Origin: a virus
IMG/VR virus record: IMGVR_UViG_3300020187_000010
Direction: 5' to 3' (one strand)
DNA length: 64,000 nt
Of this stretch, positions 26,109-64,000 are shown in pieces (the first letter of the stretch is position 1; the number at the start of each line of letters is the position of its first letter). The translations under genes were made by a program, and so were the position numbers. The notes below the pieces were generated by a model. That model ran no database searches. It saw only the letters and a list, made by a program, of their open reading frames with translations, and was not told where the DNA came from.

Positions 26109-26114
26109 AGATAC

Positions 26115-47053: not shown

Positions 47054-48406
47054 CTACGCGAGAATATTGTCAACTCGGAAGATTCTGTAGTAAACATTGC
47101 TCTTAGCAGCGGCAAGACCGTTACTTGGAGTAGAACCGACAAACGGGTTAGACGCCATACCATAACGAGTCTTGAACCCGATACGTGGTTGGAAGTCATT
47201 CTCGCCAACGGCTTTAACCATTTGCAGTGGAACGTATGGGCAGTAGAATACACCTGCGTCATATGCGTTAGTACCTTTGTAACCTACAGTGATGTAGTCA
47301 GCAGAGGCATATGGGTCAATATAGACCTTAGTGCGACCGTTCAAAGTACCAGCAAAAGTATTACCAGTGTCATCAACCTGAAGGTTGGTAGACATTGCAG
47401 GAGTGTAGTCCAACATACCAGAAGCGGCAAGTGCAGTAGCAACGTCAGAAGAACAGATAACAACGTTACCCTTTCCACGGCGAGTTTCTTTTGCAATTAC
47501 GTTTGCTTCGCGGTCGATCTGTACAACCAGACCCTTGAACTTCTCAGCAGACCAACGACCGTCAGCATCAGTTGACAAGTCAAAGATACCTTTAGTAGCA
47601 ACGTTAGACTGGAGAGCACCAGTTTTTGCTTGACTGTTGATAGTACGAACAACTTCACGGTTGATTTCCGCAAGGATCTCAGTAGAGAGGATGTTAGCAA
47701 GTTCAGTTTCTGCATCCAGACCATGGATTGCTTTCAGGTCTTGTGCAAGTTCTAAACTGTACTCAGCTTTCAACGCACGAGATACGGCAGTTACAGTTGC
47801 CTTCTCGATGGTGAAACCCATTTCTGCGAAAGGTGCACCAACACCATCACCCAGTGCTTCAGCAGCAGCGGTAGTCATACCAGTTGCAGCAAGTGAAGTC
47901 AGACGAGAATCGTCTACACTTGAGTCAACAGTGCGAACACCAGTTGCAGAGTCATCAGAGATGCCGTTGAAACCAGAAGCGTTATCAGAATCGTGAGTAC
48001 CGGTACGGTCACCAGAGAACTGAGTTTCTGCTTCTTGGAACAATGCTTCACGTGAAGAAGTTGAACCAGCACCATAACGTGCCTTCATCGCGAAGATGAG
48101 ACCAGTTGGGCCAGACATTGGTTGAACGCCACATACGTCATATGCCATCAAGTTAGGCATTGCACGGCGAACGAGAGAGATCAATACTGGATCCCAGTTA
48201 CCCGCAGAAGTGGTGTTGTTGCCCGGCGCAGCTTCGTTTAAAGAACCGAAACCTGCGTGTTGAGCGCGTTCTTCCATCATTGCTTTCTCTTGGTTTTCCA
48301 AGATTGCAGCAGTAACAGCTCTACGTTGATGATCTTTAATCTCGCCAGCAGAACTTTCGTTCAGGACGGGAGCCCATTTTTCGATAAGAGTATCGTAAGA
48401 ATTCAT
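47054..48406 (-). CDS. 23: major capsid protein gp23
   Basis: KWAPVL, GVQPMSGPTGLIFA, SRALKAEYS.ELAQDLKAIHGLDAE, FQPRIGFKTRYG. Confidence 0.98.
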   Translation of the reverse strand: MNSYDTLIEKWAPVLNESSAGEIKDHQRRAVTAAILENQEKAMMEERAQHAGFGSLNEAAPGNNTTSAGNWDPVLISLVRRAMPNLMAYDVCGVQPMSGPTGLIFAMKARYGAGSTSSREALFQEAETQFSGDRTGTHDSDNASGFNGISDDSATGVRTVDSSVDDSRLTSLAATGMTTAAAEALGDGVGAPFAEMGFTIEKATVTAVSRALKAEYSLELAQDLKAIHGLDAETELANILSTEILAEINREVVRTINSQAKTGALQSNVATKGIFDLSTDADGRWSAEKFKGLVVQIDREANVIAKETRRGKGNVVICSSDVATALAASGMLDYTPAMSTNLQVDDTGNTFAGTLNGRTKVYIDPYASADYITVGYKGTNAYDAGVFYCPYVPLQMVKAVGENDFQPRIGFKTRYGMASNPFVGSTPSNGLAAAKSNVYYRIFRVDNILA

Positions 48407-48418
48407 ATTGGTTATTCC

Positions 48419-49456
48419 TTATTGAGTTCTAGAAGTTTTTCTAATTGCAGTGAGGTAAGAGTCCATGCTTGAAGACACTTCAACTGTTGTTTCAGGTTCC
48501 TCATCTACGGCAGCAACTTCTTCACTAATTTTTTGAGAAAAGTAAGATTCGCGGATAGTAGCAACTTTAGATGCGAATACTTCCGCACTTTCGAAATCGA
48601 TACTTTCAACGAGACCTTTCAGTTTCTCGACTTGGGTGTCTGCCAAACCACGAGCGGCTTCAGCAATGATAGAATCACGCTTCAACACTTCGAGTTCTTC
48701 TGACAGTTTAATGGACTCACCAGTTTGAGAATTTAACTTCTCTTCAAGTTCTTCAACTTGACCTGCGAGTTCATCAACTAGGTCTACCTTGGACTCAGGT
48801 ACTTCGATGTGAGATTCTACGAATAGATCCTTCATCTTGTCCATAAAGTTCTCTGCGATTTCAGTACGGAGACCGTTCTGAACAGCAACTTTATTATCTT
48901 CCATCCAAGTTTCAACTACGTAGTTTAAGTAAGAATCAACTTTCTCAACAAGATCACTCTTAATAGACGCGACTTCTTCAGATAGTTCTTCTTGGTATTG
49001 TTCCTCTAAACGAGAAACTTCTTCGGACAGTTTAGATTTAACAGCAGCTTCAAAGATAACTGAAGTTTTCTCTTTGAACTCATCAGACAAAGTTGCCTCT
49101 GACTCTACGAGTGCATCAAGTTCACTTACTGTATCAATTTTTTCTGCAACTACTTCAACATCAAACTCGACATCTTCGCCCATCATTTTACCGTATGCAG
49201 CCTGAAGATCCATTTTTTTCATGGAGTTCATCTTCTGGTACATAGAGTTAATCATGCCCGCTTTTGTCTTGGGTAATGTTGCTTTCTTAGTTGCATCGGC
49301 CGCCTTATCTACTGACGCTACAGACTCAGGTTCAGTTACACCATCAGTTGATGTTGCGCCTGCGCCTTTAGGTTCTGCTTTTTCTTCGAGAGTTTCCTCC
49401 ACGATTTCGTTAATATCATCGTGAAGTTCTACTTCGACATTAGTTTCATCAGTCAT
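48419..49456 (-). CDS. 22: prohead core scaffold protein gp22
   Basis: LSDEFKEK...IFEAAV, KVDSYLNYVVE.W..DN..A...GLR.EIAE.F. Confidence 0.93.
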   Translation of the reverse strand: MTDETNVEVELHDDINEIVEETLEEKAEPKGAGATSTDGVTEPESVASVDKAADATKKATLPKTKAGMINSMYQKMNSMKKMDLQAAYGKMMGEDVEFDVEVVAEKIDTVSELDALVESEATLSDEFKEKTSVIFEAAVKSKLSEEVSRLEEQYQEELSEEVASIKSDLVEKVDSYLNYVVETWMEDNKVAVQNGLRTEIAENFMDKMKDLFVESHIEVPESKVDLVDELAGQVEELEEKLNSQTGESIKLSEELEVLKRDSIIAEAARGLADTQVEKLKGLVESIDFESAEVFASKVATIRESYFSQKISEEVAAVDEEPETTVEVSSSMDSYLTAIRKTSRTQ

Positions 49457-49466
49457 TATAGACTCC

Positions 49467-50126
49467 TTACATATTAGATTTGATTAACGAGAGGAAATTT
49501 TTAAACTCACGAATTTGAACAGCAGAACTGTACGCCTTCGGTGCATTTTTGATTTCTGTCTCCATATCTTCAATTATCTGTTGTTCCAAAATACCGTTAT
49601 TCCAGATCCAATCCACACCTTCCATAATACCATTAACAAAAGCATCAGGTGCGGAGGGGTCTTGTACTATGTCGATAGTTGCAAGGTGAAAATCTTCACC
49701 AACATATGCGACACCATTTCGGTTCACTAGACTTCCCATACCACGAGTTGACACACCTAGTTGAACACCACCTTCTAGAAGACCTTGAACGATCTTACCC
49801 ATCGGAGTATCCAATATTTGTGCCTTTCCGACCACATCATTTCCCTCAAATCTGAGGTCAGTGATGAGATGCGAAACTTTATCCAAGTTAACAGTTGGGC
49901 CTTCGGGGTGATTCAATTCACCGACCGCACGTTTCTTGCTAACTTGTTCGGTAACGTACTTATTTACAGCACGTTCCATAATTGCTTTGGGGTAAATTCG
50001 CCCATTGCGATTCTTTTGATCTGCTTGAGCGAATACGCCCTCGATGACATATTTCTTGGCACCGTCTTCTTTCTTTTCTACGATACACTGAATGTCGTTT
50101 TCGTAGTATTCGCTAATCAGTTTCAT
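49467..50126 (-). CDS. 21: prohead protease gp21
   Basis: NRNGRIYP, GELNHP, GVSTRGMGS, DIVQDPSAPDA. Confidence 0.96.
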   Translation of the reverse strand: MKLISEYYENDIQCIVEKKEDGAKKYVIEGVFAQADQKNRNGRIYPKAIMERAVNKYVTEQVSKKRAVGELNHPEGPTVNLDKVSHLITDLRFEGNDVVGKAQILDTPMGKIVQGLLEGGVQLGVSTRGMGSLVNRNGVAYVGEDFHLATIDIVQDPSAPDAFVNGIMEGVDWIWNNGILEQQIIEDMETEIKNAPKAYSSAVQIREFKNFLSLIKSNM

Positions 50127-50326
50127 TTTAATTCCTTTACGACTGTCTTTGCAGTCTTCTCAGCTTCTTTTTGATCCTTGAAGGTGTCTAACATATCACC
50201 GTCAATATACAAAACGAAACCCTTCGAGTCTTTCACGATCTTAACAGGTACTTTATCGATCTTCTTATTGAAGACGACTTTACCTTTGGAAGCGACAGCT
50301 TCTCTTAATTGACCGAATGTTTTCAT
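50123..50326 (-). CDS. small prohead core protein (gp68 position)
   Basis: MKTFGQLREA capsid-targeting-like start; lies between genes 20 and 21. Confidence 0.7.
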   Translation of the reverse strand: MKTFGQLREAVASKGKVVFNKKIDKVPVKIVKDSKGFVLYIDGDMLDTFKDQKEAEKTAKTVVKELK

Positions 50327-50350
50327 TTTAAGTTTTTCCGTTTATGGTAT

Positions 50351-50358
50351 TATTTATA
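50351..50358 (-). promoter_or_regulatory. T4-type late promoter TATAAATA
   Basis: Exact motif upstream of the core-21-22-23 unit. Confidence 0.8.
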
Positions 50359-50384
50359 CAAATTCCATCTTTAACAATAAACTT

Positions 50385-50648
50385 TTATTCGATATCGTCA
50401 GACTCGTATTCTGTTTCATCTTCTATTTCATCTTCGATGAGATCGTCATCTTCGAAGTCTATCTCCAGTTGATCTTCTTCTGCACCGTTAAAGATAGTGT
50501 CTGCAACAGAAATCTTTTCAACTTCCAATGCGTCATGCATCTTATCAGCCAACACGGCATCTAAAGAACCCTGTGCTGAGTTAAAATCTTGTTGTTGGAT
50601 CGCATCAATCAAATCATGGATGGGATTAGTTTCTACTTCTTCAGTCAT
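50385..50648 (-). CDS. acidic prohead core protein (gp67-like)
   Basis: Position after the portal gene; very acidic C-terminus. Confidence 0.7.
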   Translation of the reverse strand: MTEEVETNPIHDLIDAIQQQDFNSAQGSLDAVLADKMHDALEVEKISVADTIFNGAEEDQLEIDFEDDDLIEDEIEDETEYESDDIE

Positions 50649-50650
50649 AG

Positions 50651-52174
50651 TTATACTCCAAGGTCTTCTTCATTATCATCTCCGCCCTTTGCGTTCTCGG
50701 CTTCGACTTGGTTTTTCATTTCTTCAATATCATCATCAGACATCATCATGACATTCTTCATTACCCACTCACGTGAGAAGTATTCACCTACGTACTGTGA
50801 TACTTGGTCAAGGGTACTTAGTCTTTCTCTAAGTATCTCAGAATCCTTCAACTCGGTGAAATGATTATCACGAACAAAGTCTATCTGGATATCATTCTTC
50901 CAAATATCCCAATCCTGTTCTGTACAGATACCTTTGAGGATTAATTGTTTCTTCAGGATACCAGTGAATAGGCCAGAAAAACGTTTACGTAATCTATCGA
51001 TAAACTTCTGGAATTTAACTTCATCCCTAGAAATCTCGGTAGAACGACCCAGACTAAACTGTGACTCTTGTTCTAAACGGTTGATAGGTACATTCAAAGA
51101 ACGATACAATCTCTTCTGGAAGTATACAATATCGTCAATCTGCCCAAGGTTCTCACCGCCAGGTAGTGTACTAATCTCGGTACCACGACCACCTTCTCTA
51201 CGAGGTAACCAGAAGTCCTCCAACATAGACATATGTTTACGGTCATCTTTAAGGTTACCGGTACTCGCATCGTATACTAACTTATTACGATAACGACCCA
51301 TGATATCCTTCATGTGTTGTTCTGCTTTGTTAGCAGGTAAGTTACCAACATCAATATAAAAGATTCTACGTTCTGGTGCACGTGCGAGACGATAAATTAC
51401 CAGACTATCTTCCATCATACGTAACTGGTTGATGGGTTTAATTGCTTTCTGTAAGTAAGATAAAATACGTTTCTTACTAGGATCTGTAAGACCCGAAGTC
51501 ACATATGATACTGCATCCGGAGAAATCTTTACCGCACTCTGCGTAGAACTCTTCTCTTGGAACACGTAGAACTCTTCGGTTTTATCTACGATCTTTGCAC
51601 CAGTCAGTGTATCTTTTTTATACTTTACTTCTTTTACTTTACGAATCTTGGGGGTGTCTATAGGACGGATCTCTTGGATACCGGCCTTCGCATTAGATTC
51701 GTTTACTACTAAGTGATGGACAAGACGACCGTCAATATACCATGAACGGAATATGTCGTGTCCCATCTCGGAAAAGTTTAACATGGAACATATCCCATCA
51801 AACTCTTCTACCATTAATTTTTTAATTTTATCTGACGTTTCGATACCGTCTAGATTCAGTTCTACAGGAGAGGTTGTCTCCGAACCAGAAATACTTTCGT
51901 TTACAATATCTTCAATCGCTGCGTCAACTTCTGGATGGTTGGCCACACCGCGATACTTCATGATGAGTTCTGCATTGTCCTTTGCGTTATCACCATTAAT
52001 GTCAATGTACTGACCATAGTGAGAACCAGACGCAGTTACATAACCCGCACCATCGTCATCCGCTTTCGGAACGATAGAAGGTAATTTATCATTTTCTTTA
52101 CCGGTTTCTTTTTTCGATGCTCTTTTGAGTTCGAAACCGAATAATTTCATAATACTGTTATTGTCGTCTGCCAT
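50651..52174 (-). CDS. 20: portal protein gp20
   Basis: HPEVD.AI.DIVNE, NQLRMMEDSLVIYRLARAPERRIFYIDVGN, EDFWLPRREGGRGTEI. Confidence 0.98.
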   Translation of the reverse strand: MADDNNSIMKLFGFELKRASKKETGKENDKLPSIVPKADDDGAGYVTASGSHYGQYIDINGDNAKDNAELIMKYRGVANHPEVDAAIEDIVNESISGSETTSPVELNLDGIETSDKIKKLMVEEFDGICSMLNFSEMGHDIFRSWYIDGRLVHHLVVNESNAKAGIQEIRPIDTPKIRKVKEVKYKKDTLTGAKIVDKTEEFYVFQEKSSTQSAVKISPDAVSYVTSGLTDPSKKRILSYLQKAIKPINQLRMMEDSLVIYRLARAPERRIFYIDVGNLPANKAEQHMKDIMGRYRNKLVYDASTGNLKDDRKHMSMLEDFWLPRREGGRGTEISTLPGGENLGQIDDIVYFQKRLYRSLNVPINRLEQESQFSLGRSTEISRDEVKFQKFIDRLRKRFSGLFTGILKKQLILKGICTEQDWDIWKNDIQIDFVRDNHFTELKDSEILRERLSTLDQVSQYVGEYFSREWVMKNVMMMSDDDIEEMKNQVEAENAKGGDDNEEDLGV

Positions 52175-52196
52175 CTTTGCCTCAAAGTAAAAATAA

Positions 52197-52233
52197 TACG
52201 CAGGGGGAAAATCCCCCTACGCATATATTTAGT
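52197..52233 (-). promoter_or_regulatory. late-promoter variant ACTAAATA followed by a GC-rich hairpin between genes 19 and 20
   Basis: ACTAAATA at 52233-52226; GCGTAGGGGGA-TTT-TCCCCCTGCGT stem. Confidence 0.55.
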
Positions 52234-52239
52234 CACAAC

Positions 52240-52767
52240 TTAACTAGTTGTGCCTGACTCCCAATATTGTACTTGGAATGTTACGGTAAACTCTTCGATA
52301 GTGTCTACTGTATCATAGTTCAAGTCAATAGCAGAAATCACGGTTGGGAAACAAGAACGGAAGTTGTAAGTCTTAATTACAAGTCCATCTTTGTCCAACT
52401 GGTCTACTGACAGGTCAGTTTGGTAATCCGCAGGATCATTGAATCCGGTATTCGCATTGTGCGAATTGATACCGTTCATCCAACGTTCCATTGCATCACG
52501 TATTTCAAAACCTGTGTCGTTAATGACGGTTACTGTCCACTCTTCGAATGTACGGTCACCGGCAATCTTCAGTTGACGACCACGGAAAGGTACCGTGATC
52601 GGAGCAACGTTAGAAGAAGGTAACTGTGCACCCTTCACCATGAAAGAAGTCAGTTCTGCATCACCAAGGGCATATGCAGGAAAGTTCAACTTACAGTTGA
52701 AGAGGTTAGGACGAGCACCACCGCCTTTTAGTTTTGATTTAAAATCATCTACACCTAAAATAGCCAT
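52240..52767 (-). CDS. 19: tail tube protein gp19
   Basis: GGARPNLF, PFRGRQLKIAGDRTF..W.VT..ND. Confidence 0.96.
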   Translation of the reverse strand: MAILGVDDFKSKLKGGGARPNLFNCKLNFPAYALGDAELTSFMVKGAQLPSSNVAPITVPFRGRQLKIAGDRTFEEWTVTVINDTGFEIRDAMERWMNGINSHNANTGFNDPADYQTDLSVDQLDKDGLVIKTYNFRSCFPTVISAIDLNYDTVDTIEEFTVTFQVQYWESGTTS

Positions 52768-52771
52768 TGTA

Positions 52772-54580
52772 TTATGCTCCTACCGTGCCGATAACTTCTT
52801 CAAAGTCCACACCACTTCTAACAGCAACAAAGTTCAATTGAACGAAGTTGATAGAACGTGCGGGTTTAACGAAGATACTTGCAACAAATTGGTTATTGTC
52901 CACAACTTCTTGATTGTTGTTTGTTTCATCACATACAACACGGAAGTCAGTTATACCTCTACGACCCTTAACTCTACGGAGGAAAGGTTCAACGATATTT
53001 ACGAACTCTGCACGAGTAAACTCGTCATTGAATTCGAACATCACGTTTTTCGCAGCTTCACCAATAGACTTCTCAATCGCAATAAACAAACGTCTTACGT
53101 TGATACGGTCAAAGGCAGAAGGTCGGCTTTCCAACGTCTTATCACCAAACAAGATCAGACCAGTGCCTGGAATGTTTGCGATAGGGTTGACACCTGCTTT
53201 ATACAGAGAATCACGTTGGGTTTGATTAGGGTTAGTTAAGATATCGGTAACACCACGATAATTACCACGTCTCTGTCCGGCAGGTGAGTACCAAGGATCT
53301 GCGATAATGTCAGTAGCAGCCATCAGACCCGCAGTGCTTGAAGCAGCAGGGATGTTGATGTACTTGTCGTTGTACTTATCAAAGATCTTGATGAAGTTGT
53401 TATCGACAATTAAGTAAGAGGATTTAGTTAATCCGCCAACGAAGGAAACCGCATTGGTTGTTGCTTGTGCATCGGTCTTACCCACAAGATTGTCTCTGTC
53501 TACAGAAGTTATTACAACACAATCTTTACGTGCAGTTGCAATTGACGTTAGGTCATTTGTAACAGTCGCGCCTTGTGCGGCAGTTGGGTGCATAGGAGCA
53601 ATCAGGAAGTCAATCTCGGTAGTGAGTTTGTCTTCGAACAGATCGTAACCTTCTGAGATATCGCCAGTAGATAGAGTTGCAGACGCTTGTCCACCACCAA
53701 GATTTACTGTACGAACACCATCTACAAGAGCTGCACCGAGACCATAGTTGGTCGCAGTATCTACATCAGGAGTAGTTCCCCAGTTTCCGCCAAGATCTAA
53801 GAAGTCAGAACCGAAGGCAGAGTCATCACCGAAGTAACCATTCCAGATATACTGAGAGTTTGCATTCAGTACGTCAGAGATATAGTTAGGTGAATTGTCA
53901 GGAGTTACTGCGCCTTTAGCAACAGAGAGATATTCAAACTTTTCAAGAACTGCACCAACAGTACCAGAGATTAGACCGGTACGGTCAATAATAGCAACGT
54001 GAACTTCGTCATTAGATGCACCATTGCTGGTTGCATAAGTAGAAGATCCGGGCGCGCCATTGAACTGTGATGCGTATGACCAACCAGTAAAGTGATCAAC
54101 ACTTGCAGAGTCGCCAGCAGGACAGAAAGATACAGTCAAAGCGTTACCAATGTCGCCTGGATATTTTGCAATCCAAGTACCACTAGAAGTTTTTGAAACA
54201 CCTTCACCTACTGCGTCTTTGACAGTATTTTCCCAGTGAGAGCCATTGTTGACAATCATAGAGTTAAGGTCAGAGTCACCTGCAAGTTTGGTCACTGCAC
54301 CGTGTGCGTTTTGTCCACCATTGTTCTCGCGAACAACTTGAAGAGTTTGTGAGTATTTTAAGAAATACGCAGCGGAATGAAAATCCACTGAGTTCGTGTC
54401 GTTAGGTGCGGCAAATGCAGTAACTAAACCCGTCTCGTCAGAGATAAGAGTTCGTTCATGCACAGGGCCCCAACGGAAGTTTCCTACGAAACCAGCACCA
54501 GAAGCACCGACAGCAGGCACGATTGCCGTTTTGTCGATCTCACTGATATTGATCCGTGGAGATGCGGGTTTTACAGCCAT
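52772..54580 (-). CDS. 18: tail sheath protein gp18
   Basis: SP...I.EID, F.WGP, PW.SPAG..RG, SAFDRINVRRLF, FEFNDEFTR. Confidence 0.97.
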   Translation of the reverse strand: MAVKPASPRINISEIDKTAIVPAVGASGAGFVGNFRWGPVHERTLISDETGLVTAFAAPNDTNSVDFHSAAYFLKYSQTLQVVRENNGGQNAHGAVTKLAGDSDLNSMIVNNGSHWENTVKDAVGEGVSKTSSGTWIAKYPGDIGNALTVSFCPAGDSASVDHFTGWSYASQFNGAPGSSTYATSNGASNDEVHVAIIDRTGLISGTVGAVLEKFEYLSVAKGAVTPDNSPNYISDVLNANSQYIWNGYFGDDSAFGSDFLDLGGNWGTTPDVDTATNYGLGAALVDGVRTVNLGGGQASATLSTGDISEGYDLFEDKLTTEIDFLIAPMHPTAAQGATVTNDLTSIATARKDCVVITSVDRDNLVGKTDAQATTNAVSFVGGLTKSSYLIVDNNFIKIFDKYNDKYINIPAASSTAGLMAATDIIADPWYSPAGQRRGNYRGVTDILTNPNQTQRDSLYKAGVNPIANIPGTGLILFGDKTLESRPSAFDRINVRRLFIAIEKSIGEAAKNVMFEFNDEFTRAEFVNIVEPFLRRVKGRRGITDFRVVCDETNNNQEVVDNNQFVASIFVKPARSINFVQLNFVAVRSGVDFEEVIGTVGA

Positions 54581-54646
54581 AGCATTTTCCTTTAGTTTCG
54601 TTAACGAATGATAAGTAAATCATAATACGGTTATTTTCAATACTAG

Positions 54647-54654: not shown

Positions 54655-54667
54655 AGAATACTATTCT

Positions 54668-56275
54668 CTACCAGTCTCGATCACCTATCGTGTCTATAGA
54701 GTGCCATCCTTGGTATGTGTTATCTTGTTCTTCGATATAATCCGATCCATCATCAATGAAACCGAACGGTACTATATCATTTTCTATTGCGGACATCTTA
54801 TCTCGGAACATCATGTCCTTTAGATTAATGTCTGTCATATCCGCAAAGAATTGGGTGGATACGAAATATCCAAACATCACTAGGTTCATCATAAGGTCAT
54901 CGTGGTTACCACTAGAGGCTTCGTATGATTGTCCTTTACCTATGAATGTTGATATCTCTAGGATGGTGTTCTCATCCACTATGTTTATTTTGTTTGTTTC
55001 TATAATGTCTTTGATTGAGGAACACCCAAGTCTCTTGACTTTTCGGTTCATTTCTATACCGAGTGCGTCTGCCTTGGTTGCACTGGAGGTGTGGAGGTTC
55101 TCATATTCTAAGTCATAATATAGTCCATTACAAACTACTGTACCCTGATCATTTGATTCAACGACTACCCACGATTGATTGTAGAGATTCGCATACTTAT
55201 ATATAATGTTAGGAAAGAGTAGTGGAGAAATAGTATTGCACCGATACACCGCGACTTGTTTGAAAGGTCGTGAGGTAATATCGATTACGTTAAACGTAGA
55301 ATAATCCTGTCCTCTTCCCTTCGATACATCAACTGCCATGATGTATTCGTAATCCTTAATTGGTTCGTCATATATAAGGCAGTCACCCCCTTCAAGAACA
55401 CTTGAAGGATTTTGTGCTCTGAGACCCATCAGGGTTTCTGCACCTATGAGTGTATCACCCGTACCAAAGAAAGTATTACCAAATTCTTGGTCGAACTGTA
55501 ATTGAGAAGTGTTCGCAATTGTTTGCAACTTCCATTTCTCATCCCTGCCCGGCACATCCCACCAATCCACACGGAATGGTTGGTATGCATTCGTTCCTTG
55601 AACGGCACCAGTCCAAATCTTTTCGTACTGATTACCAATACCATTTGCGGTAGAGGTGATGATTACTTTGGTGTCTTTACCCGAAGATACAACAGGATAC
55701 GTTGACGTATAGAACTCAGCCGCATTCTCAACGAAAGCAAACTCATCGAGAAAAAGAAGATTAACAGACATACCACGAATAGAAGACCCACTAGTAGCAG
55801 CGGCAATGATTCTAGAATTATTACTAAACTCAATAGAACCTTTGTTGAGTGCCTTACAACCCGGCTGCAAAAAGAAAGGAAGGTTTTCCAACATGAGTGT
55901 AACACGTGCGAGCATCTCTCGTGCGGTTGCACCTTTGTTTGCAAGTACTGCGATAGTTTTCTCGGAATGGAAACAAGCATACCATAGAAGGTACCCAACC
56001 GAACTGATTGACTTACCGGATTGACGACATGCAAGTACGATAGAGAAACGATTCTTTTCGAAATGGTCAAACATCTTTTCTTGATATTCGTATAAATCAA
56101 AATTAACCAGACCACGGTCAAGATGCACCACCTTTACGTATGTACGACAGAAGTGTACGGGGTCTCCCATACACTTTTGGTATTCTTTTATCTTCTCTTC
56201 TGTCCAATTCTCGGCAACCCCATCCCGCTTCACCATTGGGTTTCCGAGGTAGCTCTCTTTAGTCTGAGTCGTCAT
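54668..56275 (-). CDS. 17: terminase large subunit gp17
   Basis: YLGNP, RQSGKS, LFLDEFAF, ITSTANG, HDDLMM. Confidence 0.97.
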   Translation of the reverse strand: MTTQTKESYLGNPMVKRDGVAENWTEEKIKEYQKCMGDPVHFCRTYVKVVHLDRGLVNFDLYEYQEKMFDHFEKNRFSIVLACRQSGKSISSVGYLLWYACFHSEKTIAVLANKGATAREMLARVTLMLENLPFFLQPGCKALNKGSIEFSNNSRIIAAATSGSSIRGMSVNLLFLDEFAFVENAAEFYTSTYPVVSSGKDTKVIITSTANGIGNQYEKIWTGAVQGTNAYQPFRVDWWDVPGRDEKWKLQTIANTSQLQFDQEFGNTFFGTGDTLIGAETLMGLRAQNPSSVLEGGDCLIYDEPIKDYEYIMAVDVSKGRGQDYSTFNVIDITSRPFKQVAVYRCNTISPLLFPNIIYKYANLYNQSWVVVESNDQGTVVCNGLYYDLEYENLHTSSATKADALGIEMNRKVKRLGCSSIKDIIETNKINIVDENTILEISTFIGKGQSYEASSGNHDDLMMNLVMFGYFVSTQFFADMTDINLKDMMFRDKMSAIENDIVPFGFIDDGSDYIEEQDNTYQGWHSIDTIGDRDW

Positions 56276-56612
56276 GCGGGATCACTTGTTTCTCATTCTG
56301 TAAAAATCGTTGGAGTTCGGTTGTTGAACCCAGAAAAACATTGTTGGTGGTATTACCTCTATTCTCCAGAGCTGGAACATCAGACTTCTCGACATCCTTT
56401 TTCTTTTTCTGGAGATCCATTAACTTATCGTTAACATCAGCAATACCTTTTATCATACCAGACAATACTTCGAATGCGCGAGGGTGTTCACTCTCACGTG
56501 CAACTTCAATCATGAGTTCCAGAGATTCACGTCCCTTTTCAATTAGGTCGTAGTAGGTCTCTCTAGAATAGTCATAATCACTTTTGATGTTATCATTACT
56601 ATCATCTGACAT
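56259..56612 (-). CDS. 16: terminase small subunit gp16
   Basis: DY.YSR...Y.LIEKG, HPRAFEV, NN.F.GST.ELQ. Confidence 0.92.
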   Translation of the reverse strand: MSDDSNDNIKSDYDYSRETYYDLIEKGRESLELMIEVARESEHPRAFEVLSGMIKGIADVNDKLMDLQKKKKDVEKSDVPALENRGNTTNNVFLGSTTELQRFLQNEKQVIPHDDSD

Positions 56613-57388
56613 TAAAATGCACTATCCAAATATAATTCTAAAAATCCATAGTCGCTATCTGCACTAATTCCAACCGGAGTTGGTGTAGTTTGGATGCGTG
56701 TGTGAAACAGATCTCCGTCTGCTCCTATAGTATATAGATTATTATTAACTTCGCGTATGACCGGTGATTGTGAGGTTGGGCCGTAGAAGTTTATTTTCAT
56801 ACCGAATGATAGTGTGTATATGATGGTTCTTCGATCACCAACAGAACCTTCAAAGTCGTCCGAGAAAGATATTGCCTGTAATGTAATAGGTACGTCTTCT
56901 TTTATCTCGGGGAACTCTGAACTGAAAGGTTTTACACCAACCGTATATGATGGGTTGAAATATGGTATAATCTGTTCGACCATTTGCAATGCGTCATCTT
57001 GACTCTTTGCATATACGTTGACATCAAATGTCATATCATATGGTACGGACACATAGAAGTTATTACGTTTAGTCTCACTACCTTGCAGTGTTGTCGAGAA
57101 CGTATTTGTCTTGGGTAGTTGTCTCTGAGGGTCATACGCCATAGAAGTAATCTCGAAAGACATCCGAGGCAACTTAATTGCAACTCTACGTTCCTGTTCT
57201 TCACCTTCTCTCATTTCCTGAAGACGTTGAATGAAACTTCTCTTGGGGGCATATGATAACGGAACTTTGACTTGAGAGATAGTCTCTCCTGCCGAGTTAG
57301 TTCTCAACACATATATGTTATTAAATAAAGAACCGAATACGGATACCGCAGTTCTTACTCTCTTGTGATAAAAATGTGTTCCGAACAT
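56612..57388 (-). CDS. 15: tail sheath stabiliser/completion protein gp15
   Basis: FG..FYH, FG.LFNNI, KVPL.Y.PK, LPRMSFE, EQI.PYF.P. Confidence 0.95.
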   Translation of the reverse strand: MFGTHFYHKRVRTAVSVFGSLFNNIYVLRTNSAGETISQVKVPLSYAPKRSFIQRLQEMREGEEQERRVAIKLPRMSFEITSMAYDPQRQLPKTNTFSTTLQGSETKRNNFYVSVPYDMTFDVNVYAKSQDDALQMVEQIIPYFNPSYTVGVKPFSSEFPEIKEDVPITLQAISFSDDFEGSVGDRRTIIYTLSFGMKINFYGPTSQSPVIREVNNNLYTIGADGDLFHTRIQTTPTPVGISADSDYGFLELYLDSAF

Positions 57389-59139
57389 TATGACATATCT
57401 CCAAACGGATTTCCTTCAGAAAAATCTAAAAAATCACTTTCGAAATCATCAAAGTAATCTCCCTGAGAAAGACCTGCGGCCACCTCTTCTATTTGTTGTA
57501 ACTCTTCTACCAGATTCGGTGCATAGGTTGCACTAGGAGAAACTACCGCTCTTGTTGTATTGAATGTATGATACTTACCGTCTGTCGCACCCACATGAGC
57601 CAGATACAAAGTATTGTCCGAGTCAGACCATTTTGCAACCTCGCCGGTCATGGAGTATCCACTACCAGACTGTGTTACTATCTCACCACGTTTGTAATCA
57701 TTAACACTGTATGGAGCAGAAATCGTTACGGTCGGTGGTTCGTTGTAATATATACCCGAGTTTGTCAAGATAAATGAATCTATCACACCATCCGAATCGA
57801 TTGTAGATGTAGCGGTTGCACTGATTGCATCGAAATGTAACAGTACGGCATCTTTATCATCTGCACTATATGCGGCTTCAGTAGTTACTATTACGTTATC
57901 AACACCAACAACAGTATATCTTGGTTCTAGAAGTTCTGCCTTCGTGCCAACTTGAACACGGAATTCATCGATGAATCCATTCAATCCACTCCAGTCAACA
58001 CCATCGACTGTACGTGCCGCAGTTCCGCCTACCGAGTAACCATTATCAGACACCCAGTCGAAAGTAACACCTGCAAGATTATCATCAAACTTTTTCTCGA
58101 AATCAAAGTATATAACTAGATTATTTGTATCAAATGCACCGATAAGTATGTGATGCCAAGTATCTTCTTGGAATAAAACGTTATTACCAGTAAGTACTGT
58201 GACACCACCGCCAGAATTATCACCACGACTATATGTTAACTGACCACTACTATTGACACCCCAGAAATATCGGGCAGGAAGATCGTCATCACTTCCACCT
58301 GTTTCGAAAAAGATTGACTGACCAGTAGAAGGTAAATCATCAATATATATCCAAGCTTCAATTACACCATGCAATCCGGTTTGTGTGTAATTAGATTCTG
58401 AACCACGACCACGACCTACATCCAGAGACGCATTACCGAACTGCGAATTACTACCCAAGGCAGATTCTAGAGTTATTGTGGGTGCAGAAGTATATCCCTT
58501 ACCTGCGAAACCAGTTTGAAACTGTGTCACTTGTCCATCGAGATTGATCAGTGTAGTTGCAGTTGCTCTCGCAACCTCCGGAGACTCCATGACCAGTTTA
58601 TATTGGTATGCACTCTCAACCTCCACGTCATCAATACCTTCGATATCAGTATCAAAGTCTTCGTCATTATATTCGAATAACTCACACTGAAGTCTGAACG
58701 TTGGTAATTGACTTAGTTGATAGAAAGGTGTTTCGGTTTCTACTTTGAAGATCTCAAACATAGACTGAGAGAATGGGATGTATATGATATCACCTTCTCT
58801 TGGACGGAAGTTATACGCATCTAGTTTATCACCGATGAGTCCTTTCCATCTTCTTCGTGCACAAACAAATGTTGCTTGATCACGTAACTCTACTCCGAAC
58901 TTGGAGAATAAGTCAGCCTCTCCTCCAAACCCATCTACATTCTCTACATACATTTCTATTTTGTATGCGTCACTGAAATGCGAAGGAACGTCATCAAGGA
59001 ACACTTTATCTACATTGACAAGTTCACGGGGTAAATAATATACATCTTGACCATAGAACTTCAAGGACTCGATTACCAAGTCCTCGTATAAGTTCTGTTC
59101 GCCACGTACTGCTTGGGAAACCCACGGATTCGTTGCCAT
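57388..59139 (-). CDS. 14: neck protein gp14 with an inserted LamG/concanavalin-like domain
   Basis: EQNL.EDL..E....YG.DVYYLPR, RPREGD.IY.P, PFYQL, CELF.Y..E, DFSE.NPFG; insert carrying IEAWIY, WHHI, GFIDEFRV. Confidence 0.9.
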   Translation of the reverse strand: MATNPWVSQAVRGEQNLYEDLVIESLKFYGQDVYYLPRELVNVDKVFLDDVPSHFSDAYKIEMYVENVDGFGGEADLFSKFGVELRDQATFVCARRRWKGLIGDKLDAYNFRPREGDIIYIPFSQSMFEIFKVETETPFYQLSQLPTFRLQCELFEYNDEDFDTDIEGIDDVEVESAYQYKLVMESPEVARATATTLINLDGQVTQFQTGFAGKGYTSAPTITLESALGSNSQFGNASLDVGRGRGSESNYTQTGLHGVIEAWIYIDDLPSTGQSIFFETGGSDDDLPARYFWGVNSSGQLTYSRGDNSGGGVTVLTGNNVLFQEDTWHHILIGAFDTNNLVIYFDFEKKFDDNLAGVTFDWVSDNGYSVGGTAARTVDGVDWSGLNGFIDEFRVQVGTKAELLEPRYTVVGVDNVIVTTEAAYSADDKDAVLLHFDAISATATSTIDSDGVIDSFILTNSGIYYNEPPTVTISAPYSVNDYKRGEIVTQSGSGYSMTGEVAKWSDSDNTLYLAHVGATDGKYHTFNTTRAVVSPSATYAPNLVEELQQIEEVAAGLSQGDYFDDFESDFLDFSEGNPFGDMS

Positions 59140-59142
59140 TTT

Positions 59143-59904
59143 TTATCCTACAAAGAACATTGGGCCAATGTCTTCTTCTTCTCTGAATTTAATCATGATT
59201 TGTTCTATCTCTGCAACAGCATCATCATAGATCTGTCGTCCCGAAATAGTAACACCGCCAGGTAATTGCATACCTTCGAACTTAGACATATTCTGTCCCC
59301 ACTGTTTCTTGAGTAGTGCGATAGAATATTGTTTTAAAAACTTATGGTTCCATAGTGAATTCAAATCCGAGTTTGTTCCCGCATTAGGATCAATATCACC
59401 ATATACCTCAAAGACCACATAGTTACCTACTGTGAAATCTGCCTTATCATGATAGAAATATACTCTGTCATTCTGTCGGTCAAATGTAATCTGTGGTTCC
59501 CCACTTAGTTTCATATCAAGTAATGATAGGTGTTGTTGCATTTGTTCATAGTATGCCATGTCACCACTATGTCTATTTAGATCACTAATATCATTCAATC
59601 TCATCTGATACTTAATATCAAAGAAGTTGGTTGATGCAGTCACACTATCCACACGGAACATGCGTACAACAGTTAATAGATCTTCTTGTAGTTCGAAAAA
59701 CCCTGCGTCAATTTCTGCCTGAACAAGTTGATGTGTAATGTAAAATCGTCTTTTACCATCAGGGTGATATTCACGAAACCATTGTAAAGCTTCGTCAATA
59801 CGATCTTCGATCTGTTCGTCCGCCACATTAATTTCGAGTACAGGAGATCCTAATGCCCGTAGACAGTAGTCAATATGTTCGTCTCTTGTATTTGGATTGG
59901 CCAT
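59143..59904 (-). CDS. 13: neck protein gp13
   Basis: YCLR.LG.PVLEINV..EQI.DRIDEA, K.QWGQN..KF.G.QLPGG. Confidence 0.95.
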   Translation of the reverse strand: MANPNTRDEHIDYCLRALGSPVLEINVADEQIEDRIDEALQWFREYHPDGKRRFYITHQLVQAEIDAGFFELQEDLLTVVRMFRVDSVTASTNFFDIKYQMRLNDISDLNRHSGDMAYYEQMQQHLSLLDMKLSGEPQITFDRQNDRVYFYHDKADFTVGNYVVFEVYGDIDPNAGTNSDLNSLWNHKFLKQYSIALLKKQWGQNMSKFEGMQLPGGVTISGRQIYDDAVAEIEQIMIKFREEEDIGPMFFVG

Positions 59905-59915
59905 GTTATTACCTA

Positions 59916-62900
59916 TTAGTTAAGTAGCGTTCCCGCAGAGTTATATACGTTGATTCGATAATGCGAACCTTGTTGACCATCAAGAACATCAGCATCCAGA
60001 CCTGAACCCGATCCATCTACAGTCTTGACCGCAGTCAACAGTTCATTTGCAGTAGAGTATGTTTCATCTACCGAGAACTGACCAGTCGCAGAGTCATATG
60101 CGATATCACCAGTAACACTGAATTGATCACGAATGTTTTGTGTCGTGACCTTGTTATAGGTAATTGTACCAGTTCCAGAGTTATAACTTAAAGAACCGAA
60201 TCCAGTACCATTATTATTGATACCGATTGCACCACGTGCAAGAGTATCAGTATACTGTGTAATGGTAGTTGAAATCGCCCCATCGGTGATTGAGATACCA
60301 GTACTTGCGGATATTGCAGAACGGATGTTTGCATCTGTTACCTTCGCAAAACTAAACTCTCCATTTGAATATGAGAGTGTACCATATCCGGTACCACTAT
60401 TTGCAGCAGAGAACAATGCAAGAGTTGACGCAGAGTCTACGCCAGGATTTGCTAAACTAAACTGTCCGGTCGCACTATCATATCCAAGACCCGAATTATC
60501 TACACTGAATAAGTTACGGATAGTAGACGTATGGTTGGATAGACTCGATACAGTACCAGTTACGTCACCTGTTAGGTTTGCGGTGATTGCAGTTGCAGTA
60601 AAGTTACCCGAACCATCACGTTCAACAATTGTACTTGCGGTATTCGCAGAAGTCGCAGTAGTTGCAGAATTCTGTACCTTACCCGCAGTTGAGATTGTTC
60701 CGAGTTTAGTATCTGCAATCGCAGCATTTGTATTGATGTCAGCATTGACAATAGTATTCGCAGTAATCCCAGTCGTAATAGTAATGTTACTAGTACCATC
60801 AAACGAAGTTGCGGTACCAGTCACATCACCAGAAATACCAATAGTTCTTGAAGTGAGAAGACTATTTGCGGTAGACGCATTACCCGTTACTGCACCAGTA
60901 ACATTACCATATAATCTGTTGACTTGCAAGTCTGCGAGTTCAAAAGATGGGTCTGAAGTATTGATGTTTCCACCAACTTCTGGATCGTATTTGTTGAAGA
61001 ACTTCCAACGACTATCTGTGGTATCACGGAAGACACCCGCATGGGTATATGGCGCATCAATCGTATTGTAGTTACCGACAATACCAAAATCTTGATTGAT
61101 TGGTTGTGCGTCACCTTTCCAGTAGTTGTTTAAAGTGTGACCAGTAGGAGACGAGAAAGTTACCTTGACATTATATCTTAATGGTACAAGAGTATTATCT
61201 ACACCCAAGTTCCAAGAGGTAGGGCCTGTACCACCGTCCGAATCAAACGATAACGGAGTAAACTCGCCAATACCTTCCGCAGAGTCGAAACCCCATTGGA
61301 TAGTATCACCTGCACTATCGGTTCCGGTTATCTTGACAAAATACGTTCTGTCAGAATCACCTTCATAATATTCTTTGAAAGTCGCATCATTAAGTCCAGA
61401 TATACCCGCACCGAATACTGTTTCGATGGTATCACCTGCACCAACATAGATGAACTGATCACCAACGTTTAGAGACTGTACAGTAGTTGTTGTTTCAGAA
61501 CCAAGGATGTTCAGATTACCTGCGATAGTGACATCACCATCTACACGTTGGTTACCTTGAACACGAATGTTCTCTGCAATCTCTGGAGCAAGACGGATCT
61601 GAATACAACCACCGACATTACCACCAGTTGCGGAATCCGAAACAAGTACCGTACCAACTTGATATGGCCAGTTAGGATAATCAGGAGAAAATGCTACCAT
61701 TTCACCCGCACTATCAGGAGAAACGTGAAGGGTATCACCCACATTAAAGGATGCAGTATTCAACCCACCGTATAGACCACGTACTGTTACATAACCATAT
61801 GCACCATTAGCGATAGTACTTGATGCAAGTCCAGATGTTGTGTATGTTGTACTGAAGTTATCTGCCTTTGCAAGTGAGATTGTCGGGAAGTCATTTGCAG
61901 CACCAGTTACATATACAACTTTACCCTTGGGAATAGATGATCCCGAGTTGTTGAAAACTCGCATGATTTCATCTTGACCAACTTTGACATTGATTGATGA
62001 GTTCGAGTATACAAGTGCATCAGGGCCTTGCATATAAAACAAGTTACCTTCACGGAAAGCAGGAAGGTTATTGGGAACATCGATATCCGAGTAGGATGAT
62101 ATGTCTACGTTAAGTAGTTTGAAGTCACCAGAATCCGCAGTGATTTTACCATCAACAATCATACGGTCTTCAACACGGATATATTCTGCGTGTTCTTTCT
62201 CAACGTTTACAAGTAGTGAACCCGAAGTAGAATCTACTGAGATTACACGACCTACGTGTGTAGGATAACCTTGGTCGATTGATACTTCAGTTGTAGACCA
62301 CTTACCCGCACTATCAGCAGAAAGGTATGCAAATGCACCTTCGATCATATTCGAAGTGTTCAAACCATTTACTAAACCGAACTGAGTCACATAACCGTGG
62401 TTCCCGTTCGGGATATCCATAGTTGCAATACCAGTAACATTTGCTGTAGAAGAAGCATCTGCCTTTGCAAGAGATATTTGGGGGTGGATACCGTGTGCAG
62501 TACCGGATACGTATACTGCATCACCATTGTTAATCTGTCCACCGGTCAAGTTATGAACATATATTAAATGTTCTTGACCGAGGTTGATTGTTACATCTTG
62601 AACCAATTCATTGGTTGTTGGTATAAACGATATACCTTTCTGTGGGTTTGAATCATAGTAGAGTAAACCCGCAAGACTATTAGGTGCAGTTTCTTGTTTA
62701 GTTAAGTGTAGACATCCAATCTCTGCGGAGTCAACAGTTACCTTACCGAATACAATATCATCGGTAGTTCCGACAGACTGTGCAATCGCAATAGACCCGT
62801 CAGTGATTGTGACACCAGTTCCACCAGAGAAATGTGCACGAGTCTCGGATGCACTAGGGCCTGTGTATGTAATTACACCAGTACCGTTATTATAAGATAG

Positions 62901-64000
62901 AGAACCATCTCCACCTGCATCTGTTACTGAGACCAGACCACGTACTTCTGAGTCTGTTCTTTGTGTGAAAGAGTATCTACCAGTCGCAGAGTCATATGAT
63001 AAATCACCACCGGCAGATAAATGCGCACGGACTTCACTCGCATTTGGGCCAGTGTATGTAAAGATACCTGTGGATGAATCATATGAAAGAGACCCATCAC
63101 CCCCAGCATCGTTTACTGATACTGTGCCACGTGCGTCTGCATCTGTATATTGTGTAATACTTGTCGAGATTTGACCATTGGTGATACCAATACCTGTACC
63201 TGCACTAAAATGTGCACGGACTTCGGCCGCAGAAGGGCCGGTAAAGGAGAACGTACCTGTAGAACTATCATACGAGAATGAACCATCTCCGCCATTGTCA
63301 GTCGCAGATACCGCAGCACGTGCTCTGGCATTGTTGAAATAGAGATTGGTAGAACCACCTTCACTTAAATCATTGGTAGTTTTTAACGCAAAGTCAGAAT
63401 CAAATCCTGCATATGATACTTCGGTATAACCTAGTGTACCAGTTGCAGCGTTATATGTCAACGGTAAACCACTTACACCAATCGCATTTCGTGCGGTAGT
63501 TGTGGTGGTTGCGGAATCGTAATAGAGGTTAGTCGAGCCTTGTGTTAGGTCGTCTGTTGTTTTGGTTGCAAGATCTGTATTGAATAGAGATGTTGCATAA
63601 TATTTGTTTGTGCTACCTTGGGTAAGATCGTCTGTTGTTTTAAGAGCAAGACGATCATCGAATGCGGAGTCTGCACGTGCAGTTGTGTAGTAAAGGTTAG
63701 TCCCTTCACTTAAATCCGAAGTCGAGAAATGTTGCAGACCAATTCGTGCATTGAATGAACCACCATCTGCGGTGGCCAGTGTAAGAGTTGCATTAGAGGA
63801 ATCGAAGGATAACCCCGAAACACCTGCAACAGTAACAGTTCCCGCACTATCAATTTGACCTTGCGCATTGATAGTCAATACTGGAATGGTTGTGGTAGAA
63901 CCATAGGTACCTGCACCGACACCAGTGTTGGTGATACTTAACTCACCGTTGGTCTCGGTAATGCCGGTTCCACCAGATACTTGTCTGAGTGTTACGATAG
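59916..64000 (-). CDS. long tail-fibre-like structural protein (5' end outside the window)
   Basis: Frame open to the window edge; G/S/T-rich repeats (TTDDL.EG..NLYY, SYDS.TG), C-terminal GSGSGLDAD.LDG motif. Confidence 0.85.
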   Translation of the reverse strand, partial: IVTLRQVSGGTGITETNGELSITNTGVGAGTYGSTTTIPVLTINAQGQIDSAGTVTVAGVSGLSFDSSNATLTLATADGGSFNARIGLQHFSTSDLSEGTNLYYTTARADSAFDDRLALKTTDDLTQGSTNKYYATSLFNTDLATKTTDDLTQGSTNLYYDSATTTTTARNAIGVSGLPLTYNAATGTLGYTEVSYAGFDSDFALKTTNDLSEGGSTNLYFNNARARAAVSATDNGGDGSFSYDSSTGTFSFTGPSAAEVRAHFSAGTGIGITNGQISTSITQYTDADARGTVSVNDAGGDGSLSYDSSTGIFTYTGPNASEVRAHLSAGGDLSYDSATGRYSFTQRTDSEVRGLVSVTDAGGDGSLSYNNGTGVITYTGPSASETRAHFSGGTGVTITDGSIAIAQSVGTTDDIVFGKVTVDSAEIGCLHLTKQETAPNSLAGLLYYDSNPQKGISFIPTTNELVQDVTINLGQEHLIYVHNLTGGQINNGDAVYVSGTAHGIHPQISLAKADASSTANVTGIATMDIPNGNHGYVTQFGLVNGLNTSNMIEGAFAYLSADSAGKWSTTEVSIDQGYPTHVGRVISVDSTSGSLLVNVEKEHAEYIRVEDRMIVDGKITADSGDFKLLNVDISSYSDIDVPNNLPAFREGNLFYMQGPDALVYSNSSINVKVGQDEIMRVFNNSGSSIPKGKVVYVTGAANDFPTISLAKADNFSTTYTTSGLASSTIANGAYGYVTVRGLYGGLNTASFNVGDTLHVSPDSAGEMVAFSPDYPNWPYQVGTVLVSDSATGGNVGGCIQIRLAPEIAENIRVQGNQRVDGDVTIAGNLNILGSETTTTVQSLNVGDQFIYVGAGDTIETVFGAGISGLNDATFKEYYEGDSDRTYFVKITGTDSAGDTIQWGFDSAEGIGEFTPLSFDSDGGTGPTSWNLGVDNTLVPLRYNVKVTFSSPTGHTLNNYWKGDAQPINQDFGIVGNYNTIDAPYTHAGVFRDTTDSRWKFFNKYDPEVGGNINTSDPSFELADLQVNRLYGNVTGAVTGNASTANSLLTSRTIGISGDVTGTATSFDGTSNITITTGITANTIVNADINTNAAIADTKLGTISTAGKVQNSATTATSANTASTIVERDGSGNFTATAITANLTGDVTGTVSSLSNHTSTIRNLFSVDNSGLGYDSATGQFSLANPGVDSASTLALFSAANSGTGYGTLSYSNGEFSFAKVTDANIRSAISASTGISITDGAISTTITQYTDTLARGAIGINNNGTGFGSLSYNSGTGTITYNKVTTQNIRDQFSVTGDIAYDSATGQFSVDETYSTANELLTAVKTVDGSGSGLDADVLDGQQGSHYRINVYNSAGTLLN

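Follow-up and report, generated by a model that had tools for sequence, protein, structure and literature searches.

In virion proteins of an uncultured marine T4-like phage, represented by a 64,000-nucleotide stretch of IMG/VR virus record IMGVR_UViG_3300020187_000010 (hereafter the window), the tripeptide Asp-Ser-(Ala/Asp), abbreviated DS[AD], is strongly over-represented. In the outward-facing virion proteins of the whole clade to which the phage belongs, it occurs at 4-6 times the chance level. Enrichment, specificity, location and clade restriction of the motif were all observed directly. The clade is abundant, and marine metagenomes contain many sheath homologues, which share 61-100% identity and lie on contigs as long as 150 kb. 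In terminase and portal trees the window, phage C48C1 and the IMG/VR contigs G003 and G004 form one clade with 100/100 support, which is separate from pelagiphage HTVC008M and the cyanomyoviruses S-RIM2 and P-HM2; G005 is a further member of the same clade.

A previous reading of the window, made from the sequence only, had counted 24 DS dipeptides with 13 DSA and three DSD in the long tail fibre fragment, and all of these counts were reproduced. The same is true for GDSDL, GDSAS and DDSAF in gp18, for ADSDY and the terminal LDSAF in gp15 and for IDSDG and SDSDN in gp14; the sites in gp23 are HDSDN and DDSAT. As stated there, DSA and DSD are lacking in gp43, gp46, gp41 and UvsW. The one or two DSA that had been predicted for the fibre from its composition agree with 3000 composition-preserving shuffles, which gave a mean of 0.89 (standard deviation 0.93) and never reached 13; a first-order Markov model predicts 4.1. 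Among the tripeptides occurring more than three times in the fibre fragment, DSA is the most enriched one. The residue following DS is Ala or Asp in 16 of 24 cases in the fibre and in 9 of 13 in gp14, gp15, gp18 and gp23 combined, compared with 2 of 60 in the non-structural open reading frames (ORFs) below 47 kb, where the replication module is located (9/13 vs 2/60, Fisher p = 3.6e-7), and 0 of 7 in gp13, gp17, gp19, gp20, gp21, gp22 and two small late ORFs. When the fibre was excluded, DS[AD] was the top-ranked XY[ab] pattern in the comparison of virion with non-structural proteins (10 v 2, p = 1.2e-6), the count of 10 including one C-terminal DSD of the small terminase, which is not a virion protein. 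The signal is stronger than originally stated.

We considered whether the enrichment is a by-product of internal repeats, of a D/S/A-rich composition or of post-hoc pattern picking. The motif was indeed picked after the sequence had been read, and some fibre sites are paralogous (Y-DSA-TG repeats and a duplicated domain with ADSAG/PDSAG and VDSTSG/SDSATG). However, 14 of the 16 fibre DS[AD] windows are non-redundant at <8/15 identity, and internal repeats therefore explain little. With the shuffles, the redundancy filter and the test conditional on DS, which is independent of composition, the enrichment did not vanish upon correction for composition and repeats. In addition, unbiased tripeptide scans of independent genomes recovered DSA and DSD. 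In G004, DSA ranked top with 37 occurrences in structural genes versus 6.8 expected and 5 versus 6.8 in the other genes (p = 2e-13); in G003, DSA and DSD come immediately after the words repeated in the hairpin proteins described below. Control phages are at expectation. A by-product is therefore to a large extent refuted and we regard it as very improbable. A motif at the DNA level (e.g. GANTC from GAY-TCN) was ruled out: at the sites, Ser is encoded by both TCN and AGY in genome-wide proportions and Asp by both GAT and GAC, so that the signal resides in the amino acid sequence rather than in the DNA.

The specificity of the motif was assessed by pooling the structural modules from the window, G003 and G004 (36,653 residues). 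DSA was observed 92 times with 16.1 expected (5.7x) and DSD 64 times with 15.6 expected (4.1x), followed by DSS (39, expected 18) and DSN (24, expected 14.7). ESA, NSA, QSA, DTA, DTD and DGA all occur at or below expectation. The Thr variants are below it (DTA 9 vs 18.1; DTD 12 vs 17.6), and the fibre fragment is devoid of DT[AD]. As third residue after DS, Ile is found at 0.4x, Val at 0.6x, Thr at 0.7x and Leu at 0.9x of expectation, and Met does not occur. The core is strictly D-S-[A/D]. Its flanks are nearly free, with preferences of at most 2.8x at 137 non-redundant sites.

The sequence-only reading had drawn a parallel to the O-glycosylation sequon of Bacteroidota, D-(S/T)-(A/I/L/V/M/T) (PMC8550257, PMC12871550), which according to a review is the only known sequence-defined O-glycosylation motif in bacteria (PMC12871550). 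Both motifs are Asp-first tripeptides with the acceptor in second position and enrichment at the proteome level. DSA fits the sequon, and one sheath alignment column alternates between DSA (47) and DTA (31). The parallel fails elsewhere: the sequon accepts Thr and hydrophobic third residues, whereas in our pooled modules DTA and DTD are below expectation, none of the five other permitted third residues is enriched and the disallowed Asp is favoured. Furthermore, the Bacteroidota system is periplasmic and serves non-cytoplasmic proteins only (PMC12871550). Transfer of a lipid-linked glycan to exported proteins in the periplasm is a poor fit to cytoplasmic virion assembly, and the clade groups beside HTVC008M and the cyanomyoviruses. 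That the phage makes use of a Bacteroidota-type general O-glycosylation sequon of its host is the least probable explanation and extremely unlikely.

The sites are located in outward-facing or variable parts of the virion proteins (Table 1). Both gp14 sites fall within a C-terminal Laminin_G_3-like extension, and gp14 of relatives carries up to seven DS[AD] among nine DS. In gp15, the sites belong to the last 15 residues; the blocks VS[AP]DSD[YF]GF and terminal YLDSA recur throughout the clade, and gp15 of T4 and HTVC008M has no DS[AD]. The gp18 sites lie in the variable outer domain, within a stretch (residues 88-275) that cannot be aligned to T4 gp18. Mapping on AlphaFold models had been proposed as a check, and in the sheath model residues 102, 157 and 253 are predicted to be in coil, in loops of the outer domain. 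The two gp23 sites are in or at the edge of residues 118-151, which are unalignable to T4 gp23 in a structure-sequence alignment; gp23 of C48C1 has DSA at a position matching a window site. In 120 sheath homologues, DS is followed by Ala or Asp in 424 of 530 cases (Ala 337, Asp 87), and the sites occupy at least 20 alignment columns, all within residues 85-335, where they have been gained and lost. In the conserved core of these homologues, DS is never followed by Ala or Asp. gp13, gp17, gp19 and gp20 contain no DS[AD] in any relative examined. In G003 and G004, ORFs with at least two DS[AD] cluster in capsid, sheath, gp14, gp15, fibres and outer baseplate, and the remainder of the genome shows the compositional level of 13%. 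G005 has kept the motif as well, with no loss of density (fibre 30/42, gp15 3/4, gp14 2/2). Two DSD lie outside the virion proteins, one at the small terminase C-terminus and one in gp55. The latter (VNVDSDLS) is kept in C48C1, and DS[AD] counts of the G004 and G005 orthologues suggest the same; hence not every conserved DS[AD] sits on a virion protein.

Phages outside the clade lack the enrichment. In T4, Ala or Asp follows DS in 2 of 21 cases in the fibres, 0 of 10 in sheath, head and neck and 3 of 33 in the baseplate. Virion proteins of S-RIM2, P-HM2, phiN3 and HTVC008M carry DS[AD] at expectation, and the five controls pooled give 21/173 = 12%, which equals composition. These phages rule out a general trait of T4-type virion proteins or of marine phages. 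Inheritance of the motif together with fibre modules was likewise rejected. Tail fibres of roseophage CRP-6, a Nitrincola phage and Pseudomonas phage Rollin share homology with fibre residues 429-1063. At the places aligned with the sites, homologous modules have NTD in S-RS29, YNSGTG in CRP-207, YNSSTG, ADSR, ADTR and ADAR in P-TIM40 and GGG and SAA in CRP-6; the Nitrincola phage is also without the tripeptide there, and Rollin has DTAG at one aligned place and three DSA elsewhere. Since modules from outside the clade carry other residues, the tripeptide is a clade-specific overlay that the fold does not require. Repeats, composition and a general turn preference are insufficient as explanations because the motif is lacking in the controls, even in homologous fibre modules. 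The fibre contains a tandem duplication of a domain of ~200 aa (residues 429-640 and 644-830), which is homologous to tail fibres of CRP-6 (gp61), Nitrincola phage 1M3-16 and Rollin and thus represents a receptor-binding-type module common to small unrelated phages. Residues 1003-1076 match residues 60-133 of the phage L decoration protein Dec in sequence (PDB 6e3c, E = 2e-6).

Taken together, D-S-[A/D] has the features of a short linear motif that would be held by selection on the outward-facing parts of the virion, i.e. the long fibres, the outer baseplate, the outer domain of the sheath, the gp14 extension, the C-terminal tail of gp15 and the gp23 insertion. The strict core, the free flanks, the exposed sites and gain and loss at many independent positions argue for a trans-acting recognition step. 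T4-type virions assemble in the cytoplasm. Most likely, the step would consist of covalent modification of the Ser in this compartment by a soluble phage-encoded transferase that acts on folded or assembling proteins. O-glycosylation would be the most likely modification, and donors could come from phage nucleotide-sugar genes. That DS[AD] serves as acceptor tag for such a cytoplasmic Ser modification is in our view the leading explanation and a serious possibility, albeit short of probable. More tentatively, we propose that the clade may coat head, neck, sheath, baseplate and fibres via a phage-specified D-S-(A/D) sequon that is read by a cytoplasmic transferase. Exposed sites, free flanks and clade specificity fit any trans-acting reader, including a non-enzymatic partner such as a decoration or assembly protein that docks on the motif, or a host or environmental surface to which the motif binds as a weak multivalent ligand. 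However, a tripeptide offers little binding energy, the sites on head, neck, sheath, baseplate and fibres differ greatly in geometry and no candidate partner was identified, all of which makes docking distinctly unlikely.

Genes beyond the window end were examined on L005, a 96% identical relative, in which the fibre has its full length of 1409 aa. Upstream of the fibre gene, L005 encodes an 1826-aa "hairpin" protein, o151, o249, o231, an LtfC-like protein and a 663-aa fibre-like protein. We observed that o249 is a GT8-like glycosyltransferase (GT) of the GT-A type. Residues D89 and D91 (DxD) are invariant in 37 homologues, and the structural model (predicted local distance difference test score, pLDDT, 92.3) matched glycogenin, LgtC, the UGGT catalytic domain, XXYLT1, LARGE1 and GlyE in Foldseek (probability 1.0, E ~6e-8, template modelling score 0.5-0.58). 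Among these GT8 matches, glycogenin, UGGT, XXYLT1 and GlyE act on proteins. The ESM Atlas gave Nucleotid_trans and GT8 at 0.97, and no Pfam (PF01501) or NCBIfam match was obtained even at E up to 5. The gene resides between fibre genes in L005, G003, G004 and C48C1, and a GT of this type is present in one of 50,697 phage records. The o151-o249-o231 cassette is syntenic in G003, G004, L047, L017 and C48C1, the latter being the sole phage record with the cassette; it was not found in T4, S-RIM2, P-HM2, phiN3, Rollin or HTVC008M. Genes for a dehydrogenase-like protein and a short-chain dehydrogenase/reductase (SDR) in the window share its clade distribution. The giant hairpin fibre proteins of L005 and G003 are built of the words GNY, YTR and YSR, which are the most over-represented tripeptides in G003, and the cassette follows the hairpin genes in L005, G003 and G004. 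A late-promoter consensus is present at L005:1373, upstream of the hairpin gene; o151 is preceded by a weak sigma70-like site that is no better than those in shuffled sequences.

A number of observations weigh against modification of the motif. The host recognition cluster of G005 is fully covered and contains neither hairpin proteins nor the o151-o249-o231 cassette. As G005 keeps the motif without it, the GT8-like gene tracks the hairpin fibres and not the motif, which weakens o249 as a universal enzyme. The 1826-aa hairpin protein right beside this GT in L005 has ten DS and not a single DS[AD]. We found no transferase common to all motif-bearing genomes, and no enzyme follows the motif throughout the clade. 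Moreover, motif and candidate genes are traits of one monophyletic clade, and their co-occurrence thus counts as a single evolutionary event. In the pooled non-structural proteins of the three genomes, DSA (11 vs 15.2 expected) and DSD (15 vs 18.1) are not depleted; there is therefore no sign of off-target avoidance, and avoidance of the motif in non-structural proteins is unsupported after pooling. That the Ser is modified, that the modification is a sugar and which enzyme is responsible are all things that we infer. The sequon-directed coat over head, neck, sheath and fibres envisaged by the sequence-only reading is supported in part, as far as the motif is concerned, which is real, specific and situated on outward or variable parts in a clade with sugar-nucleotide and GT-like genes; the link to an enzyme that tracks the motif is not supported.

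Further observations of this kind are those that would be expected if DS[AD] were a clade-specific structural loop motif without any modification, i.e. an Asx/ST-type turn, a helix N-cap or a site for divalent cations by which exposed virion loops are made stiffer in seawater. The fibre repeat Y-DS[A/S]-TG-x-F can be matched position by position to the loop of the classical GB1 beta-hairpin, D-D-A-T-K-T (DGSFSY-DSS-TGTFSF vs DGEWTY-DDA-TKTFTV). This likeness covers 5 of the 24 fibre DS sites and none in sheath, gp14 or gp15, and homologues of the repeat in P-TIM40 and CRP-207 read Y-N-S-[S/G]-T-G. Shifts in the flanks of the non-redundant sites point in the same direction, with Phe at 2.4x in position -1 and Gly as the commonest residue in position +3 (22 sites, 1.9x background). 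Many fibre sites are found at fixed places in recurring modules (LYYTxAR-DS[AD]-F, INAQGQI-DSA-GTV, NDKNIVLA-DSA), the sheath sites are in loops, D253-S254-A255-F256 forms an invariant conserved block in the sheath, and an unmodified loop also agrees with a motif that no transferase tracks. However, homologues outside the clade do without the motif, including those of marine phages, for which the ionic environment is the same. If the motif were a turn or cap, it should tolerate Asn, Thr and Glu, whereas NSA, DTA and ESA are unenriched, and Ala, the main third residue, is no metal ligand. It is also hard to see how a single lineage would converge on one tripeptide in non-homologous proteins without a shared reader. 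On balance, a structural or ion-binding role is somewhat less probable than a modification, but is a strong competitor to it.

If a modification takes place, a close known parallel would be the O-GlcNAcylation of staphylococcal Ser-Asp repeat adhesins by SdgB/SdgA, in which soluble SdgB glycosylates the minimal peptide DSD in vitro (PMC8561734). A soluble transferase and surface-exposed fibrous targets would be shared features; the Asp-flanked Ser of SdgB corresponds to DSD, which is enriched in the clade but is the less common form of the motif. SdgB differs in being a GT-B enzyme (GT4) with a DUF1975 domain, whereas the only well-supported transferase nearby here is of the GT-A type. Its substrates are long tandem SD repeats and not isolated sites with nearly random flanks as in the phage clade. 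No member of an SdgB-like family was detected among ~50 ORFs scanned against Pfam.

Glycosylation of mycobacteriophage virions by phage-encoded GTs has reportedly been established experimentally for siphoviruses of actinobacteria by Freeman et al. in 2023, a reference cited in PMC12801897. We know of no tripeptide sequon for these virions, in which capsid and tail-tube subunits are reported to be modified. GTs encoded beside structural genes are a common feature, as o249 is placed among fibre genes and GT2 genes are present in the fibre island of G005; for the present clade, a glycan coat is a proposal. Besides an SDR, the G005 island encodes two fibre proteins that combine collagen repeats with Peptidase_S74 chaperone domains; one of its two GT2 is fused to a methyltransferase domain and the other to DUF6445. 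These contents replace the hairpin proteins and the GT8-like cassette. The genome layout of the clade is the same as that described for pelagimyophages and cyanomyophages, in which a variable host recognition cluster with fibre genes and GTs is located between baseplate and neck genes (passages in Zaragoza-Solas et al., 2020, PMC7029224). The same passages name GT8 as the most frequent GT family, list a UDP-glucose dehydrogenase and interpret the GTs as modifiers of host lipopolysaccharide; neither a DS[AD] motif nor virion modification is mentioned in them. The cultured pelagimyophage HTVC008M has neither the motif nor an o249-type GT.

The sequence-only reading had also listed GTs, uronic-acid enzymes, a sulfotransferase, oxygenases and possibly ATP-grasp ligases in the window. 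Of these, only the dehydrogenase-like protein, albeit short, and the SDR are well supported; the GT25-, GT8- and sulfotransferase-like proteins and the ATP-grasp protein stayed below threshold and the oxygenase-like protein had no family match. The dehydrogenase-like protein (327 aa) scored 139.6 bits with NCBIfam TIGR03026, under the cut-off of 189.8, and covers only positions 76-296 of the 413-position model, which indicates that it lacks the C-terminal UDP-binding domain. It may not have the same activity as canonical UDP-glucose dehydrogenase. Orthologues in C48C1 and G003/G004 are similarly short (319, 349 and 312 aa). The gene is present in C48C1, G003, G004 and G005 and absent from S-RIM2, P-HM2 and T4. 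The SDR gene occurs in C48C1, G003 and G004 and not in S-RIM2, P-HM2 or T4; no NCBIfam equivalog cut-off was reached by its product. The GT25-like protein has homologues in C48C1 (61%), G003 (52%) and, weakly, G004, and the 279-aa protein with faint GT8 resemblance has one in G004 (44%). In G003, a 191-aa ORF outside the structural module (25616-26191), ~0.7 kb from the GT25-like gene, has DS[AD] at four of eight DS; only one other ORF outside the structural block also has two or more DS[AD]. The oxygenase-like protein is a paralogue of o231, with 35-41% identity to o231-type genes of relatives. It matched nothing in Pfam or NCBIfam and showed no significant similarity to the annotated 2-oxoglutarate (2OG) oxygenases of S-RIM2; o231 has no family match either, and an assignment of both proteins as 2OG-Fe(II) oxygenases is no more than a weak lead.

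Our literature searches returned no report of a DS[AD] motif or of virion glycosylation in marine myoviruses. If DS[AD] is a modification site, a common ocean phage group would have its surface chemistry set by a readable code, and a sequence-defined O-modification code would exist outside the Bacteroidota, unreported in the searched literature for a myovirus virion. Glycan shields on such virions would affect how the phages recognise hosts, withstand proteases and grazers and adsorb to particles, and also how proteomic data of marine viromes are to be interpreted. Many GTs in host recognition clusters of marine myoviruses would gain a second reading besides the modification of host lipopolysaccharide discussed in passages of PMC7029224. 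The hypothesis names target peptides as well as variants that are expected to fail (DTA, ESA, NSA). Even a purely structural motif would be unusual, as a single lineage would have arrived at the same tripeptide in proteins that are not homologous.

Table 1. Genes, motif sites and other features (window coordinates unless a contig is named; numbers after DSA and DSD are residues)
Feature	Position	Strand	Basis or remark
ATP-grasp	3565-4704		below threshold, E = 0.15
Dehydrogenase-like (nucleotide sugar)	23295-24278	minus	Pfam UDPG_MGDP_dh central + N domains
NAD-dependent NDP-sugar epimerase/dehydratase (SDR)	24226-25164	minus	Pfam Epimerase 3e-51
Primase	25164-26108
Possible GT25-like	31370-32173	minus	below threshold; Pfam Glyco_transf_25 E = 1.2e-3, 19.1 bits vs cut-off 24
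279-aa ORF, faint GT8 resemblance	32170-33009	minus	Pfam Glyco_transf_8 E = 0.15
Sulfotransferase-like	34538-35212		below threshold; PHROG E = 7e-7, Pfam E = 0.26
gp55 DSD	42093-42101
Oxygenase-like	45749-46372	minus	paralogue of o231
gp23, major capsid	47054-48406	minus	Pfam Gp23
gp23 DSD139; DSA152	47984-47992; 47945-47953
gp22	48419-49456	minus	Pfam/PDB matches
gp21	49467-50126	minus	Pfam/PDB matches
gp20	50651-52174	minus	Pfam/PDB matches
gp19	52240-52767	minus	Pfam/PDB matches
gp18, tail sheath	52772-54580	minus	Pfam sheath domains
gp18 DSD102; DSA157; DSA253	54269-54277; 54104-54112; 53816-53824
gp17	54668-56275	minus	Pfam/PDB matches
Small terminase	56259-56612	minus	Pfam/PDB matches
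Small terminase DSD	56262-56270		C-terminus
gp15, tail-sheath stabiliser	56612-57388	minus	Pfam T4-gp15_tss
gp15 DSD244; DSA255	56651-56659; 56618-56626		DSA255 C-terminal
gp14, neck protein	57388-59139	minus	Pfam T4_neck-protein + C-terminal extension
gp14 DSD448; DSD506	57790-57798; 57616-57624
gp13	59143-59904	minus	Pfam/PDB matches
Long tail fibre	59916-63998	minus	5'-open, runs off window end; no Pfam family
Fibre DSA	first fibre site 63843-63851; last 60087-60095		50, 110, 161, 336, 423, 562, 762, 788, 894, 905, 1174, 1188, 1302 (1360-aa frame)
Fibre DSD			200, 881, 919 (1360-aa frame)
Fibre Dec-like segment	~60771-60992
Hairpin protein	L005:1414-6894		~3-9 kb past window end
o249, GT8-like candidate	L005:7377-8126		just beyond window
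Hairpin proteins	G003:70560-76682		two paralogues
Fibre island	G005:30199-49070

All window genes are on the minus strand, and Pfam and PDB matches identify a late block of the T4 type. Among annotated records, phage C48C1 (156 kb) is the closest; it is syntenic with the window, and a literature search on it gave nothing relevant. G001, the nearest record overall, is a fragment of 92 kb that does not include the fibre cluster. Pelagimyophages are reported to have curli-like (type VIII secretion) genes located between their replication and structural modules (PMC7029224). The region 12238-15508 of the window may be the same thing; ORF 14092-14952, the only one scanned there, had no Pfam match. 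A 451-aa ORF (28702-30057) with a weak C-terminal HNH endonuclease motif (E = 0.013) is missing from the syntenic part of C48C1. The ORF at 30185-31321 (378 aa) contains a DruA (Druantia) domain (Pfam E = 5e-9), matches PHROG 19197 over its full length (E = 1e-147) and has a homologue in G003.

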